Sequence record: MW722821.1
Direction: 5' to 3' (one strand)
Length of the DNA: 44,390 nucleotides
From: Escherichia phage 590B
The position numbers and the translations under genes are program-made. This document shows, in pieces, positions 3,667-40,538 of this stretch; position 1 is the stretch's first letter, and each line of letters starts with the position of its first letter. Below the pieces are notes generated by a model that saw only the letters and a list, made by a program, of their open reading frames with translations, was not told where the DNA came from and ran no database searches.

Positions 3667-3693
3667 AAGGCCCCATTATGGGGCCTTAGTTTT
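3667..3693. terminator. bidirectional rho-independent terminator
   Basis: 8-bp GC stem AGGCCCCA/TGGGGCCT with T-runs on both strands, between convergent genes. Confidence 0.6.
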
Positions 3694-3896
3694 CAACGGA
3701 ATCTTGTGTTTAAATCCTGCTCATGGACAACCCTCAGAACAGTGTCATAATCCCCGTATCTTCCAGGTTCAAATATATCTAATGCCTTGTAAGCAGACAT
3801 TGCGTCAGGGAAAACCTGCAGAACCTTTTTAACCCGGCACAAGTCACCGTCGAACTCTTCATCGAACTCTTGAACTACTTCGCAAATTGCATACAT
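3693..3896 (-). CDS. hypothetical small acidic protein (opposite-strand moron)
   Basis: 67-aa ORF with perfect SD (AGGAGGTG), own sigma70-like promoter at 3921-3952 and bidirectional terminator at 3667-3693. Confidence 0.6.
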   Translation of the reverse strand: MYAICEVVQEFDEEFDGDLCRVKKVLQVFPDAMSAYKALDIFEPGRYGDYDTVLRVVHEQDLNTRFR

Positions 3897-3920: not shown

Positions 3921-3952
3921 TGAATAGTACCCTATTATATTGGGGTGTGCAA
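3921..3952 (-). promoter_or_regulatory. sigma70-type promoter (TTGCAC-N17-TACTAT), family A
   Basis: -35 at 3947-3952 and -10 at 3924-3929 read on minus strand; 32-bp element identical to 13403-13434; 28 nt upstream of gene 3693-3896. Confidence 0.6.
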
Positions 3953-4225
3953 ACTATTTATTTACGTATTCCAGTTATTCCTCCGAATTGTAAATGTTGG
4001 AATAAACTATTCGAATAGTTGACTTTTCACTAAAAATATGATAAGCTCCACCTGAGCTTGTGAAGTATGAACAAGCGACCGCGGCGCGGGCAGGTAACGG
4101 AGCGGGACGTAAGTCCTGAGTGTAGTTACGCTGACGCGTTCGGAAGGGCCATACCCTATTGCTTGTGTAAAAAGTAACTGGTTTACTGAGATTACGCCGT
4201 TTCTATGTTTAAATGATAAGGACTA

Positions 4226-13050: not shown

Positions 13051-13377
13051 CTATTTACTTTCCGCGCCTATCGCCCACCCGGTCATTACCATTTGCAGAC
13101 GGGTGGCTGTCAGTAGGCTATAGAAAGCATCTCCGTTTTTCTCTACCGAACGTATCACTGTGTAGGTTACGGCCTGCGGGGGTAGGCCCGATTTACCAAC
13201 CTCCACGGCGGCCTCACACTCGCGAACTGTAGAGTCCTTGAACGCCTTTACAATAGTAGGGTCGGCTTTCTCGAGCACACCAGAAGTCATAAGAACGGAT
13301 TCACTAAATACCTGTTCACACGGGACCCCAAAAGTAGCAAAAGACATAAACCCCAGAGCTAATACTAGTTTACGCAT
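13051..13377 (-). CDS. hypothetical secreted protein (signal peptide, no lipobox)
   Basis: N-terminal MRKLVLALGFMSFATFG hydrophobic signal-like segment; GAGGAA SD; own promoter at 13403-13434. Confidence 0.55.
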   Translation of the reverse strand: MRKLVLALGFMSFATFGVPCEQVFSESVLMTSGVLEKADPTIVKAFKDSTVRECEAAVEVGKSGLPPQAVTYTVIRSVEKNGDAFYSLLTATRLQMVMTGWAIGAESK

Positions 13378-13402: not shown

Positions 13403-13434
13403 TGAATAGTACCCTATTATATTGGGGTGTGCAA
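13403..13434 (-). promoter_or_regulatory. sigma70-type promoter (TTGCAC-N17-TACTAT), family A
   Basis: Identical 32-bp element to 3921-3952; upstream of gene 13051-13377. Confidence 0.6.
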
Positions 13435-13541
13435 GTAGTGTGCTAGAATAATTTTGCGCCTAGTGTCGCACACGAAAAGCGGGTGGTTCCCGTCTGGCGC
13501 GTCAACCTTAACCAGTAACCTCTTAACCAAAGGATTAAAGA

Positions 13542-26219: not shown

Positions 26220-26538
26220 TTCTAAATTCCTTATATTGTTGGGGTATGTGCTTACTATAATAGTCTGCTATTAGGGTGTCAATCTGTTTTATCGAACCAA
26301 CGACAAAAACATTTGCGCCACGTTTACGTATACGCTCGTGTTCCCGTAGCTGGTGCGGGTCTGGCTTAGTGTTTTCGTCTTTCTTCACCTCGACGAACCA
26401 GACGATGCCGCCGGGTAGAATTACCAGCAGGTCGGGGGCGCCGGAACGTCCTTCGTAGGAAAGTTTACGAACGAGGCCACCAATGGCCTCGAATCGGTCT
26501 TTTGCGTATTTCTGTATTTTGCCCTCAGGCGTACTCAT
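26203..26538 (-). CDS. VRR-NUC domain nuclease
   Basis: PD-(D/E)XK-type core GAPDLLVILPGGIVWFVEVKKDEN; ATG 26538 with GAGGGGTG SD (track start 26574 is an alternative codon). Confidence 0.65.
   Translation of the reverse strand: MSTPEGKIQKYAKDRFEAIGGLVRKLSYEGRSGAPDLLVILPGGIVWFVEVKKDENTKPDPHQLREHERIRKRGANVFVVGSIKQIDTLIADYYSKHIPQQYKEFRNETRI
26254..26282 (-). promoter_or_regulatory. sigma70-type promoter (TTGACA-N17-TATAGT), family B
   Basis: -35 26277-26282, -10 26254-26259 (minus strand); lies in the 3' end of the VRR-NUC gene, upstream of ORF 26028-26219. Confidence 0.5.
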
Positions 26539-29888: not shown

Positions 29889-29946
29889 TTGATTTCTCGC
29901 TTTTCAGTTTCAGTTTACTCCGGGATCTGCCCGGCCAGTGATTAGA

Positions 29947-29975
29947 ACTATAATAGCTAACTATTCATGTGTCAA
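29947..29975 (-). promoter_or_regulatory. sigma70-type promoter (TTGACA-N17-TATAGT), family B
   Basis: -35 29970-29975, -10 29947-29952; upstream of SSB-like gene. Confidence 0.55.
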
Positions 29976-31714: not shown

Positions 31715-32215
31715 TTATTCTTCTTCGAAATACTTGTTCTTAATCGCCGTCAGGCGTTTCAGGTATTCAGCCAGGTCTTCGTCTTTAATCGCGGCAATCT
31801 TCATTTTCTTACCGGTGAACTCCTCCAGCAGTTCATCGGAATCGTCGCACGCAGCATCGCTAGGACCTTCGTTAATTGCATCGTCGATAGCCTGAATCTG
31901 GTCACGAAGAGACTGGTAATCGACCTCTTCTTTCTCTTCTTCTGGTTCTGGAGTCGGCTCCTCTACTTTAGCTTTACGCGGCTTGCGTTTCGGCTTCTCT
32001 TCTTCTGCTGGTTTAGCGTCAACGATGTCTTCACCTTCAACCGGGATTTCTTTTGTTGCTTCTTCAGCGCACTCAGCTACCGCTTCTTTGGTGTACGATA
32101 CCGTCTCTACTTCCAGCGGCGTGGCAACCTGAACAACTTGTTTCGCACTGTTCGCGGCAATCAGTTCGTGCGCAACTACGAAACGTTCCAGTAATACTAA
32201 GAATTTCTCTAACAT
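31715..32215 (-). CDS. hypothetical highly acidic protein (Glu/Asp-rich with central basic patch)
   Basis: 166 aa, GAGGAG SD, own promoter at 32247-32275; composition EEEKPKRKPRKAKVEEPTPEPEEEKEE. Confidence 0.6.
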   Translation of the reverse strand: MLEKFLVLLERFVVAHELIAANSAKQVVQVATPLEVETVSYTKEAVAECAEEATKEIPVEGEDIVDAKPAEEEKPKRKPRKAKVEEPTPEPEEEKEEVDYQSLRDQIQAIDDAINEGPSDAACDDSDELLEEFTGKKMKIAAIKDEDLAEYLKRLTAIKNKYFEEE

Positions 32216-32246
32216 TTGTTTCTCTCCTCTCGTTTGGTATGGGCTA

Positions 32247-32275
32247 ACTATAATAGCGAACTATTCACATGTCAA
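32247..32275 (-). promoter_or_regulatory. sigma70-type promoter (TTGACA-N17-TATAGT), family B
   Basis: -35 32270-32275, -10 32247-32252; 21 of 23 spacer/-10 positions shared with the 29947 promoter; upstream of acidic-protein gene. Confidence 0.55.
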
Positions 32276-32299
32276 TGGGCTTTTCTAAAATAATTAATA

Positions 32300-32308
32300 T
32301 GGTACTAT
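32300..32308 (+). promoter_or_regulatory. extended -10 element (TGgTACTAT) for the Cro-like gene
   Basis: TG at 32300-32301 and TACTAT at 32303-32308, 31 nt upstream of ATG 32340; no good -35. Confidence 0.4.
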
Positions 32309-32339
32309 TCACATATCAACTGACTAAGGAGTAATTGAC

Positions 32340-32555
32340 ATGCAACCATCTGAACTAGGCATCCGTGTAGAACAACGCCGCAAAGAACTCGGCATCTCCC
32401 AGCGCCGTTTGGCGGCCCTGACCGGCGTTTCCCAGGGCGCGATTAACCAACTGGCACTTGGAGTAACTCAGGACGTCCGCCCGGCAACGCTGTTCAAACT
32501 GGCGGAAGTTCTGGAAGTAGACGCCAAGTGGCTGGCGTTAGGTGAAGGGGCTTAA
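32340..32555 (+). CDS. HTH XRE-family (Cro/CI-like) transcriptional regulator
   Basis: 71 aa; ELGISQRRLAALTGVSQGAINQL is a canonical XRE helix-turn-helix; TAAGGAG SD; lone plus-strand gene in the minus arm; terminator overlaps stop. Confidence 0.7.
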   Translation: MQPSELGIRVEQRRKELGISQRRLAALTGVSQGAINQLALGVTQDVRPATLFKLAEVLEVDAKWLALGEGA

Positions 32556-32570
32556 AGCCCCTTTCTTTTT
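32545..32570 (+). terminator. rho-independent terminator overlapping Cro-like stop codon
   Basis: AAGGGGC-TTAAA-GCCCCTT followed by TCTTTTT. Confidence 0.6.
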
Positions 32571-32572
32571 AC

Positions 32573-34795
32573 CTATTCCAAATCCTCCTCTGTCACCACC
32601 AGCATCTCATTTGGTTCGTATAGTGTCTTCGGCCTTAATCTATCCCCTATTCTTTCGGGTATACGATATGTTCTAGGTACTACTTCGCCGTTAGCATCGC
32701 AACCAAGCATTAGTTCTCCATCTTTCAACATTTTATCAAGATGGGTGTTAGTCACAGAGAAGTCACCGGAACGAGCCACTATCTGCTGCTGAGTAAAACC
32801 GCGACCTGTGTCATCTGACTGTTGCAGGTCTTCCAGTGCCGAAAGTATTGACTCCTTCCTTACTTCATCCCTGCCGCGTTTAACTTCTTCCTTTACTTTT
32901 TGCTTACCTTCTTTCGTCAACCCTTCTTCCCGCTCTTTCTCCTCGTCAGTTTTGAACGGCTCGAAACCCCACGGCATCAACACAAGCGCCTTGTGTGGTT
33001 CAGGAAGGTCCAGGTTTACGATTGTGCCGTATTCTTCTGTGCCCCCCAGGAACTCAACCGCACGGTACTCTTTCGGCGGCGGAGCTTCGCGGAACTGCAC
33101 AGACTCCAGCACCATGCCAACCGTTTTCTGTTGAGGACCGTGCTTAAATTTCGAGTGGTATACGTTTATTTGACGGTCGGTTGCACGTTCGATTGTCAGT
33201 TCCACGTCAACACCCGCATACAGCGCCCCACTGCCGCGTGCTTTCTTTCCACCCTTCGGCGTATGGTGGACAACGCCTACTGCGGCTTTAGTTGCATCGC
33301 GTACTTCTTTCAGAATGGCGATAACTTTACCCATGCCGATTGCTGTTGATGAACTGTTCTCGTCGAACTTATCAATCGTCAGTGCCAGGGTCTGGTTAAG
33401 GGTGTCGAACGCAACCATGCCAATTGGCTCGTCGCCAGCAGTTTCGCGCATTAACTTAATCAGGCTTTTAAGTTTGCCGACTTCGCCCATATCGATGACG
33501 TGTACATAATCTTTACCTTCCCCGCCATATTTAGCCGCTAGTGCATCAATACGGGTGCGTGTAGCTGCGCCACCCTCACCATCAATATAGAAATGGTGGC
33601 AACGCTGGGTATCCGCCCCCGCAAACCTGTACCCGGCGGCGCTGAGGTACATCATCCCCAGCGTATAGAACGATTTGTACGTGCCAGATTCCCCGACGAT
33701 ATCCCAGATACAATCCGACGGCATGTACCCCTCAACGACGAAATCAGCCTTTACCGGCTCCGGTAACTCGTCCTCCTCTGAGTCCTCGTCGTCTTCCAGG
33801 TCGTCGAGGCTGCAAGTTACTGGGTCCTCGTTCTCTGTGCGGTGTAGTTCTTCAATCTCTTCTTCCGGTAAATCAGGCAGAGCCGCACGAATGCTGTTAA
33901 TGCTGATAGGTTGCTTATCTATGTTAAGCTCGTCGGGTAGGCCACACATACGCAGGGCCAAATGCTGCCTACGGTTAAGCTCGGTGCAAGCGCCGTTGTT
34001 TGTATGCTGGCAGACAAAGCGCACTTCTTTACCGTCGAGCATTATGCTGGTGGAGCCCTTGCCTGTATGCAGATGTTCGTTAGGGCATGGCACTTCGTAC
34101 CCGCGCCCGGAAGATAAAGCGTCAAGGCCAAGCTCGGCTTCGCAGAAGTGTGCTATATCCGCGTTAAGCCCATGCTCATCAGCGGCAAGTGTTTTAGCCT
34201 CACGCTTACGCAACCCCATCTCTTCGGCTTTCTTGATGTACCGCTCAGCACGGATAACACGCCCTTCTGTAACCGTTATCTTCGACTCTTTATGCGGCAG
34301 GTAGATAAGGCGGTTGCCGTCTTCTGTGCAGTGGTCGCGCAACGCTTCGTCTATTTCTAACTCTGCACAAATAGCACGTTGCACCATCCACGCGTCGTTA
34401 GAGTTAAACGGCGTGCGAGCTGGAACCAGAACGCGGAAAGCGTAATCTCCATTTTTACATGCGTGCTGATGCGATGCCGTTGTGTGCAGAATATTGAAGA
34501 ACGGCGCGTTCTTGAATTTGCGTGTCAGGTCGCGGTACTGAGTACGGTTGAGATGGTCGAAATCGAACTTAACCACACTGTCTTCCAGGATAGCGTTTTT
34601 ACGGCGACCACCAACAGGCGCAATAGCTTTCTGTTTAATCTTGGCAGCGTCGTACTCTTCCTTAGTCCATGACGGGTCCACGGATAAACGCTTCGATGTA
34701 TCGCAGACATACTCGACAAACTGCTCCAGCGGCATTTCACGCGCTACAGGGTTTTTATCGAATGTGTTACGCAGCGTTGCAAAAACAATATTCAT
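32573..34795 (-). CDS. DNA primase/helicase (PrimPol-like N-terminal domain plus RecA/AAA-like ATPase domain)
   Basis: 740 aa; N-terminal primase-polymerase-like region, Cys/His cluster CPNEHLHTGKG...CQHTNNGAC, Walker A-like GESGTYKS, Lys/Glu-rich C-terminal extension. Confidence 0.65.
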   Translation of the reverse strand: MNIVFATLRNTFDKNPVAREMPLEQFVEYVCDTSKRLSVDPSWTKEEYDAAKIKQKAIAPVGGRRKNAILEDSVVKFDFDHLNRTQYRDLTRKFKNAPFFNILHTTASHQHACKNGDYAFRVLVPARTPFNSNDAWMVQRAICAELEIDEALRDHCTEDGNRLIYLPHKESKITVTEGRVIRAERYIKKAEEMGLRKREAKTLAADEHGLNADIAHFCEAELGLDALSSGRGYEVPCPNEHLHTGKGSTSIMLDGKEVRFVCQHTNNGACTELNRRQHLALRMCGLPDELNIDKQPISINSIRAALPDLPEEEIEELHRTENEDPVTCSLDDLEDDEDSEEDELPEPVKADFVVEGYMPSDCIWDIVGESGTYKSFYTLGMMYLSAAGYRFAGADTQRCHHFYIDGEGGAATRTRIDALAAKYGGEGKDYVHVIDMGEVGKLKSLIKLMRETAGDEPIGMVAFDTLNQTLALTIDKFDENSSSTAIGMGKVIAILKEVRDATKAAVGVVHHTPKGGKKARGSGALYAGVDVELTIERATDRQINVYHSKFKHGPQQKTVGMVLESVQFREAPPPKEYRAVEFLGGTEEYGTIVNLDLPEPHKALVLMPWGFEPFKTDEEKEREEGLTKEGKQKVKEEVKRGRDEVRKESILSALEDLQQSDDTGRGFTQQQIVARSGDFSVTNTHLDKMLKDGELMLGCDANGEVVPRTYRIPERIGDRLRPKTLYEPNEMLVVTEEDLE

Positions 34796-34989: not shown

Positions 34990-35280
34990 TTACCGTTTAG
35001 CCAACCCTTCCAGCAAATTTTTATACTCTTCAAAATATTCCTCGACCAAATCATCGCCGAAATAGAAGTCGATATACTCGAGATTATCTCTTACGTTAAG
35101 CGATGCCGACATGGTGCTTAGTTGGCGTAAGCTAATTAGCTTCATTTCTGTTTCTACGCAGAAAGGCCGGTAGGTATCAAGATGGCAAGAGATATTGAAG
35201 CATAAAGCGAACTCTCCGGCCACGGAGTGAACCATATACACTTCGTTTTCTGCTTTATTGTGGAAAATTACGCCTTTCAT
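34990..35280 (-). CDS. hypothetical protein
   Basis: 96-aa ORF, AAGGAG SD, ATGA overlap with upstream regulator gene. Confidence 0.5.
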   Translation of the reverse strand: MKGVIFHNKAENEVYMVHSVAGEFALCFNISCHLDTYRPFCVETEMKLISLRQLSTMSASLNVRDNLEYIDFYFGDDLVEEYFEEYKNLLEGLAKR

Positions 35281-35459
35281 TTCACGTTCTCCTTAATCCA
35301 TGCTTCGACTTTATTACGGTCAAATGTTCCCGGTAAACGGCGGCCCATAACCTTAATACAGCAGTCAGGGAATTTGCCGCTGCGCAACCAGTTATTAATG
35401 GTCTGACGTGTCACCCCGATACGCTCGGCTACCTCATTCTGTGTCATGTAATGTTGCAT
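35277..35459 (-). CDS. AlpA/Xis-like helix-turn-helix DNA-binding protein
   Basis: 60 aa from ATG 35459; MTQNEVAERIGVTRQTINNWLRSGKFP matches the AlpA-type HTH pattern; first gene of the minus-strand early operon. Confidence 0.55.
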   Translation of the reverse strand: MQHYMTQNEVAERIGVTRQTINNWLRSGKFPDCCIKVMGRRLPGTFDRNKVEAWIKENVK

Positions 35460-35556: not shown

Positions 35557-35586
35557 TTGAAAGTTCTTGACACATGTTTGTATAAT
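35557..35586 (+). promoter_or_regulatory. sigma70-type promoter (TTGAAA-N18-TATAAT), divergent from 35491-35519
   Basis: Consensus -10 TATAAT at 35581-35586; would start a plus-strand transcript across a 350-bp ORF-free leader. Confidence 0.45.
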
Positions 35587-35785: not shown

Positions 35786-35810
35786 GGGCAGGCTTAAGGC
35801 CTGCCCTTTA
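35786..35810 (+). terminator. hairpin terminator / attenuator in early leader
   Basis: GGGCAGGC-TTAA-GCCTGCCC followed by TTTA (short U-tract). Confidence 0.4.
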
Positions 35811-35878
35811 GTTACCAAGTAATAAGAATAAAGGCACAACCCTACCTGAAGAATCACAACGGCAACGTAACTAATATC

Positions 35879-35907
35879 TTGCACACCCCAACATAATAGG
35901 ATACTAT
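35879..35907 (+). promoter_or_regulatory. sigma70-type promoter (TTGCAC-N17-TACTAT), family A
   Basis: -35 35879-35884, 17-bp spacer, -10 35902-35907; 30/32 identical to the 3921 element; about 30 nt upstream of first early gene. Confidence 0.6.
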
Positions 35908-35935
35908 TCACTTATCGAAACGAGACGGAGGAGTG

Positions 35936-37112: not shown

Positions 37113-37141
37113 TTGCACACTAAGATAGAATAGGCTACTAT
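37113..37141 (+). promoter_or_regulatory. sigma70-type promoter (TTGCAC-N17-TACTAT), family A
   Basis: -35 37113-37118, -10 37136-37141; 32 nt upstream of ORF 37173. Confidence 0.55.
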
Positions 37142-37172
37142 TCATTTACACAAACTAGAGGAGAGACAGAGG

Positions 37173-40488: not shown

Positions 40489-40509
40489 TCTATTTTCTAC
40501 GATGACTAG

Positions 40510-40538
40510 TTGACTATTACCGTAGACCCTATTATATT
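40510..40538 (+). promoter_or_regulatory. sigma70-type promoter (TTGACT-N17-TATATT)
   Basis: Immediately after terminator 40457-40488 and 37 nt upstream of ORF 40575. Confidence 0.5.

Follow-up and report, generated by a model that had tools for sequence, protein, structure and literature searches.

A 16-bp palindrome, (T/G)AATAG-N4-CTATT(C/A), is the conserved unit of the intergenic region at 32216-32339 in Escherichia phage 590B, where it occurs twice, and it recurs in promoter-like sequences around the genome. The palindromes are probably operators bound by a dimer of the 71-aa XRE protein whose gene borders the region. This reading starts from features that are directly observed, namely the sites, their symmetry, their pattern of conservation, their overlap with promoter-like hexamers and the family of the protein. 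Throughout, the window denotes the whole stretch of DNA analysed, 44,390 nucleotides of sequence record MW722821.1. An initial annotation of the window had proposed that 17-bp direct repeats overlapping divergent promoters act as operators in this region. Operator-like sites do lie over the divergent promoters, but what is conserved is a 16-bp inverted repeat instead of the 17-bp direct repeat. New here are the corrected boundaries of the element, a scope wider than that of the initial annotation and the correction of a published label for the same sequence family.

The window represents a Kagunavirus (Guernseyvirinae), a lytic siphophage. The 3 kb around the control region are 94-97 % identical to Escherichia Kagunavirus phages such as vB_Ec_DUEC01 and the BASEL phages Bas70-76, and 80-90 % identical to several hundred Salmonella Jerseyvirus records. 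The gene order of the window is that of the annotated relative Bas72, whose 82 annotated genes include no integrase, CI-type repressor or RNA polymerase; S24 repressor, CI and integrase were found neither in annotated Bas72 nor in Jersey. The large ORFs of the window are all structural or replication genes.

Two palindromes in a divergent control region

The gene of an acidic 166-aa protein (31715-32215, minus strand; phrog_3127), the first of a leftward unit, faces the gene of the 71-aa XRE/HTH_3 protein (32340-32555, plus strand; ribosome-binding site AGGAG at 32328-32332) across the intergenic region. A terminator-like hairpin (32544-32565, plus strand) lies between the converging XRE and helicase-primase genes, which makes the XRE gene a one-gene unit. 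The same two genes are co-directional in Cornellvirus (loci L042 and L043, compared with window 32340-34795); inversion of the primase gene in Kagunavirus and Jerseyvirus makes the two converge at the shared terminator. In several relatives the acidic-protein gene is replaced by unrelated genes, and the control region persists as far as the ribosome-binding site, which is the breakpoint of the swap when window 32170-32230 is compared with loci L001, L005, L009, L010, L026 and L037. Judged from these alignments, the control region is a conserved joint in a mosaic genome.

The two 17-mers of the initial annotation, AACTATTCACATGTCAA at 32259-32275 and TACTATTCACATATCAA at 32303-32319, are indeed identical at 15 of 17 positions with starts 44 bp apart, and the promoter elements assigned to them are present. 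The first lies on the -35 of a leftward sigma-70-type promoter (32247-32275, minus strand; TTGACA at 32275-32270, 17-bp spacer, TATAGT at 32252-32247; 11/12 match), which should drive the acidic-protein, exonuclease and replication-gene cluster from a predicted start near 32240. The second lies on the extended -10 TGgTACTAT (32300-32308, plus strand) of the likely promoter of the XRE gene, called Cro-like in that annotation, 31 nt upstream of the ATG; its TACTAT is invariant in relatives, and transcription from it is predicted to start near 32315. The Jersey orthologue of this promoter reads TTGCGT-17-TACTAT, and an alternative promoter for the XRE gene is TTCACA (32264-69)-16-TAAAAT (32286-91), a 10/12 match.

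The direct repeat is longer than first described, extending over 25 nt (32251-32275 and 32295-32319) with 84 % identity (21/25). Read on the minus strand, every copy of it is a promoter-like module, e.g. TTGACA-TGT-GAATAGTTCGCTAT-TATAGT (-35, 17-bp spacer, -10). The second copy of this duplicated promoter/operator module (32290-32319, minus strand; TTGATA ... TAATTA/AATTAT, 9/12) may be a weak tandem leftward promoter, or a relic that now provides the -10 and leader of the XRE gene.

Each copy of the long repeat begins with a palindrome. The putative operator O1, TAATAGCGAACTATTC (32251-32266), is a perfect palindromic site with an exact core match, and covers the spacer and first 2 nt of the leftward -10, at about -26 to -11. 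O2, TAATATGGTACTATTC (32295-32310; 20.0 bits by weight matrix), matches 11/12 of the consensus; its right half is the -10 TACTAT of the XRE gene promoter, and the site lies at about -20 to -5. Only the ACTATTC of TAATAG-N4-CTATTC falls within each 17-mer.

We aligned the intergenic region from 39 related IMG/VR loci, which yielded 36 distinct Kagunavirus-type sequences. Not one of the 36 carries a variant in the half-sites of O1 (32251-56 and 32261-66) or O2 (32295-300 and 32305-310). The centre of O1 is variable (32257 in 5, 32258 in 11 and 32260 in 2 of the 36 sequences), and the sole variable position of O2 is its centre, 32302. Between O1 and the -35 hexamer, inside the first 17-mer, lies a linker (32267-32269) with more variation than any other part of the intergenic region: position 32268 varies in 12/36, 32269 in 19/36, and 16/36 have an inserted base, a 1-nt indel. 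The -35 hexamer TGTCAA (32270-75) is again invariant. Because the half-sites and the -35 hexamer are invariant among the 36 relatives and the linker varies in both sequence and length, the first 17-mer is, on this comparison, a composite in which an operator half and a -35 hexamer flank a free linker, and not one recognition unit. A near-palindrome within it, TTCACATGTCAA, was rejected as an element, as it crosses the variable linker.

These data bear on the idea that the 17-bp direct repeat (ACTATTCACAT[G/A]TCAA) is itself the operator, bound by tandem monomers or by a head-to-tail dimer. The agreement of the copies (15/17, or 21/25 across 25 nt) and the good conservation of the right part of the second copy, CACATATCAA, would fit such an arrangement. 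However, no stretch of the region is more variable than the CAC-AT part of the first copy, whose length also changes, TGTCAA serves the leftward promoter as its -35 hexamer, and the other genomic copies have the palindrome, not the CACATGTCAA part, in common. We consider a direct-repeat operator highly improbable. One observation counts against the palindromic operator as well: the left half of O2 is degenerate in Jersey (TATTAC), where O2 may be mostly a -10 element.

Distribution of the palindrome over predicted promoters

The third similar site named in the initial annotation, ACTATTCATGTGTCAA at 29960-29975, is found there within the SSB promoter, whose -35 TTGACA lies at 29975-29970. The whole-genome motif scan suggested in that annotation, run with the 16-mer at ≤3 mismatches, gave 5 matches against 0.32 expected, a number reached in 0 of 100 shuffles. 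The palindrome GAATAG-N4-CTATTA at ≤2 mismatches gave 22 strand-matches (2.6 expected; shuffle maximum 6), and the window and Bas72 each hold 7 exact copies of the 10-base core AATAG-N4-CTATT. With a relaxed consensus 14 sites were found in the window, compared to 1.07 in shuffles, and 11 of the 14 are intergenic. Weight-matrix and relaxed-consensus scans agree on 11 intergenic sites, starting at 2119, 3922, 4013, 13404, 26258, 29951, 32251, 32295, 35894, 37128 and 40504. The two matches in coding sequence (21260 and 31133) are about the chance expectation, and a further match at 29940 overlaps site 29951. This weaker palindrome-like sequence, GATTAGAACTATAATA (29940-29955), starts 11 bp from the SSB-promoter operator, overlaps the -10 and has a counterpart in Jersey (L041:32918); it may be an additional site that overlaps the first, or may arise simply from the -10 sequence. 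An all-against-all comparison of 18-mers in the style of PHIRE returned mostly coding-sequence noise and one useful seed, L043:33279.

Every site but 2119 overlaps promoter-like hexamers, and three registers occur, in which the site is centred at about -18.5, -12.5 or -33.5; the promoters are consensus-level predictions, and their orientations and starts are predicted as well. Class A comprises three sites (26258, 29951 and 32251), all in leftward promoters ahead of replication/recombination genes, with TTGACA-17-TATAGT (11/12) and the site at about -26 to -11. Besides O1, these are the candidate operator of the SSB-gene promoter (29951-29966; TTGACA 29975-29970, 17 bp, TATAGT 29952-29947) and that of a promoter upstream of the methyltransferase/helicase cluster (26258-26273; TTGACA 26282-26277, 17 bp, TATAGT 26259-26254).

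In class B the right half-site supplies the -10 TACTAT, which puts the site at about -20 to -5. O2 (32295, plus strand) belongs here with four sites in predicted TTGCAC-17-TACTAT promoters, two of them leftward (3922-3937, upstream of a 67-aa gene at 3693-3896; 13404-13419, upstream of a gene starting at 13377) and two rightward (35894-35909, with its -10 at 35902-35907, upstream of a small-gene cluster from 35933; 37128-37143, with its -10 at 37136-37141, upstream of genes from 37219). The -35 TTGCAC is thus found in 4/5 of the class, the XRE promoter having the extended -10 TGgTACTAT instead. Possible weak promoters in the opposite direction are GTTACA-17-TATATT at site 13404, rightward towards tail genes, and TCGATA-17-TATGTT at site 35894, leftward. 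Three class B promoters (3938-3953, 13420-13435 and 35878-35893) share a near-identical block past the operator, CTTGCACACCCCAA(T/C)A. This block exceeds what a -35 hexamer needs; it may have been copied recently from one site to another, or may include an additional recognition element.

Class C holds two weaker sites, both at 15.2 bits and both centred on the -35 of a rightward promoter, the -35 TTGACT being made of the site-centre TTGA plus CT. The first, GAATAGTTGACTTTTC (4013-4028; TTGACT 4019-4024, 17 bp, TG-TAAGCT 4042-4047), lies ahead of the spanin and head genes and is conserved in phage EC3-1; the second, GACTAGTTGACTATTA (40504-40519; TTGACT 40510-40515, 17 bp, TATATT 40533-40538), has a Jersey orthologue at L041:42337. 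A perfect 16-bp palindrome, AACTATTCGAATAGTT, overlaps the first of these at 4005-4020; it consists of operator half-sites abutting in the opposite, outward-facing order and is also conserved in EC3-1 (L044, ~32453). The remaining possible site, TTATAGTATGCTATTA (2119-2134), between the portal and head-morphogenesis genes, scores 16.8 bits, a value close to the 95th percentile of the maxima from shuffled sequence, and no clear overlapping promoter was found for it.

A symmetric site that shifts against the hexamers in three registers, yet always lies on DNA contacted by the polymerase, is what one expects of a repressor operator and not of a promoter element. In related phages the same sequence family has been given the opposite role. 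PHIRE analysis of fBC-Eco01 listed seven copies, PP1-PP7, with the consensus tgAATAGTa-ccTATTat-T under the label "phage RNAP promoter" (PMC9825357); O2 is orthologous to PP5. Seven PHIRE promoters of the same sequence family were listed for vB_EcoS-Golestan (PMC7203180). The 'promoter' features of GenBank OM272052.1 and Supplementary Table S2 (PMC9825357) likewise label the palindrome family phage-RNA-polymerase promoters. This label is a misattribution, because these phages encode no RNA polymerase. Neither the fBC-Eco01 nor the Golestan paper describes the palindromic symmetry of the motif, its three registers or a link to the XRE protein.

A broader version of the promoter interpretation would make the motif a phage-specific element for a phage-encoded or modified polymerase, or for a specificity factor, and not a repressor site. 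It is PHIRE's dominant repeated 20-mer, it stands ahead of transcription units, and class B promoters have the long conserved block TTGCACACCCCAAyATAATAGG-TACTATTC. We nevertheless find this very unlikely. No RNA polymerase is present among the annotated genes of the close relative Bas72, the motif is two-fold symmetric with a variable centre, and it takes three different offsets from ordinary sigma-70 hexamers, with no fixed distance. Moreover, three of the top four sigma-70 matches in the window already contain the palindrome, so that a special factor is unneeded.

Candidate binding proteins

The best candidate binder is the 71-aa XRE protein, as the initial annotation had suggested: it is a 434-Cro homologue, and its distant homologues adjoin the same half-site family. 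The protein carries Pfam HTH_3 (Cro/C1-type; 3.9e-13, residues 11-65) and falls in PHROG transcriptional repressor and regulator families. Its best solved relatives over residues 6-68 are 434 Cro (1zug; E 8.5e-6) and the DNA-binding domain of the 434 repressor (1.1e-5). A single-sequence structure model (pLDDT 81) matches 434 Cro (2cro) with TM 0.63/0.68 and 39 % identity, and also matches HipB, C-proteins, SinR and P22 C2, all of them, like 434 Cro, dimers on palindromic sites. The two-fold symmetry of the sites, their conserved arms and variable centre, and the spacing of about 10 bp between half-site centres fit a dimeric HTH site. The 434 OR/OL operators have the same geometry as the core of the palindrome, with a 14-bp core and an uncontacted, variable centre.

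The distant homologues are CI-like (XRE + S24) repressors of unrelated temperate phages, with 40-43 % identity in the HTH, and were found in five uncultivated temperate phages (loci L096, L097, L099, L100 and L102). At these loci, two clusters account for every A[AT]TAG-N4-CTA[AT]T site within 8-14 kb. The first, of 2-3 sites, occupies the gap between the cI-like gene and a cro-like gene that diverges from it, and the second, of 2 sites, lies 0.7-2.4 kb away. By their arrangement these would be operators in the lambdoid OR/OL pattern, and such clusters beside CI-like homologues tie the half-site family to this HTH clade. An XRE homologue with 38 % identity in an unrelated viral contig (L038:3850-4000) has a different upstream repeat, GATATCTGT, in at least 3 copies, which is presumably its own operator set.

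A second candidate is encoded by the phage itself, the 60-aa HTH_17 (excisionase/MerR-like) protein found by domain search at 35277-35459 on the minus strand. As an early product it could be the one that binds the palindromes as operators, with the XRE protein acting elsewhere. The HTH_17 protein is conserved at ≥80 % identity between Kagunavirus and Jerseyvirus, the genera that have the exact AATAG-N4-CTATT in common, compared to only 48 % for the XRE protein. The Cornellvirus genomes SP-031 and SE1 lack both this protein and any exact site. By position and size HTH_17 is the product of gene 008, which the K1B4 time course places in an early class of four genes, and the site at 35894 lies in its own upstream region. 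Our phyletic comparison first favoured HTH_17, and was reversed once the Cornellvirus motif was re-registered to the same 16-bp frame. Cornellvirus repeats share the frame TA(A/T)TA(G/Y)-N4-(C/R)TA(A/T)TA at orthologous promoters, with position +/-6 changed, and each genome holds 8 sites of this variant where shuffles yield about 1 (about 7-fold). Since Cornellvirus genomes keep the XRE gene and have no HTH_17 gene, the site family persists without HTH_17. Outside Kagunavirus and Jerseyvirus only one HTH_17 homologue was found, with 36 % identity and without sites, which leaves no independent association to draw on, and it is XRE homologues that the half-site family accompanies in unrelated phages. 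In EC3-1 the recognition helix of HTH_17 also differs (70 % identity) while the sites stay unchanged. We hold HTH_17 to be an unlikely binder.

A host DNA-binding protein could in principle recognise the palindromes. AT-rich palindromes in promoters are typical of the sites of many enterobacterial regulators, and the attribution to a phage protein is itself sequence-based. However, Jerseyvirus and Cornellvirus both infect Salmonella and yet differ in their half-site variants, and the motif family follows the phage protein family into unrelated hosts. The palindrome is not known to match the consensus of a host regulator, and we give this explanation almost no credence.

Two points count against repression by the XRE protein. 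The recognition helix reads SQGAINQ in Kagunavirus and SQSLITH in Jerseyvirus, though both use AATAG half-sites, and the Jersey helix resembles that of Cornellvirus, TQSAISH, whose sites differ; we found no consistent residue-to-base match between recognition helix and half-site changes across the three genera. Furthermore, a lytic phage has no obvious reason to let one protein repress nearly all of its promoters. On the supporting side, in the time-course transcriptome of the Kagunavirus vB_Eco_K1B4, gene 004, the XRE gene, peaks in the middle class together with the replication genes. The literature that we found on these sites and proteins consists of the PHIRE lists and this one low-resolution time course, with no binding or promoter experiments.

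A proposed repression circuit and its relatives

Taking the XRE protein as the binder, region 32216-32339 would be a divergent control region made of two copies of one module, with the palindrome as functional core. Host polymerase would transcribe leftward from the strong class A promoter and rightward from the XRE promoter. Rising levels of the Cro-like protein would then fill the perfect O1 and shut the leftward acidic-protein/recombination/replication unit, since O1 covers the spacer and -10 of the class A promoter and its occupation should keep host RNA polymerase out. At higher levels the protein would also occupy O2, weaker by one mismatch, and limit its own synthesis; negative autoregulation is expected because O2 contains the -10 of the regulator's own promoter. 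The same operator in the core of about nine further promoters would let the same protein damp these as well, as a genome-wide repressor of host-polymerase promoters. The binding, the choice of binding protein, the repressive sign and the transcription starts in this scheme we infer from sequence.

The closest known system is phage 434, whose Cro and repressor (ACAA-N6-TTGT; 14-bp OR/OL sites) are the best solved relatives, 434 Cro having the same length and a matching fold. As in 434, there is a 14-bp core with conserved outer half-sites and a variable centre, and the sites lie over divergent promoters, one of which is the regulator's own. Unlike in 434, the half-site is AATAG and not ACAA, two sites stand 44 bp apart in place of three adjacent ones, and about 11 dispersed sites replace the two clusters; a CI partner, an integrase and a lysogeny module are missing here. 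The comparison with a lambda-type OR/OL system of three sites, drawn in the initial annotation, does not extend to this phage: about 11 promoters genome-wide carry the site, and the close relative has no CI or integrase. Nor is the lambdoid CI/Cro switch reproduced, as an acidic protein and not CI faces the XRE gene and the sites are not in two clusters.

The temperate CI-like loci have the same half-site family and spacing (TATTAG-N4-CTAATA, CAATAG-N4-CTAAT). Unlike the 71-aa protein, their proteins carry a LexA-like cleavage domain, and their putative operators, suggested by arrangement, form two lambda-like clusters. The C proteins of restriction-modification systems (C.AhdI, C.Esp1396I) are, like the 71-aa protein, small XRE dimers of similar fold. 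C proteins bind paired palindromic sites over their own promoter and autoregulate. In contrast to the present case, they serve one operon and act as activator and repressor in turn, whereas the palindrome sites described here call for no activation.

More broadly, and tentatively, we suggest that the Guernseyvirinae, a subfamily of strictly lytic phages much used in phage therapy and biocontrol, may have put nearly all host-polymerase promoters under one orphan Cro-like repressor, a self-limiting governor derived from a temperate ancestor. If so, graded strength among about 11 operators in three registers could time early, middle and late expression, and a repressed carrier state or superinfection immunity would be possible. 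An HTH dimer that blocks promoters is a textbook, ordinary type of switch; its use here would be unusually wide. Kagunavirus and Jerseyvirus phages are common chassis for therapy, biocontrol and synthetic biology, and their transcription programme is essentially undescribed. Control of about 11 promoters by the 71-aa protein through one 16-bp site would give them a simple, testable regulation map and would provide a compact repressor/operator pair for engineering. The published annotation of these sites as promoters of a non-existent phage polymerase is corrected as well.

The window also contains an operator-free promoter close to consensus, TTGAAA-18-TATAAT (35557-35586, plus strand; 11/12), followed about 200 nt downstream by a strong terminator-like hairpin (35786-35806, plus strand). 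Promoter and hairpin lie on the strand opposite to small ORFs that are read leftward upstream of the HTH_17 gene, and may produce a short non-coding or antisense transcript.
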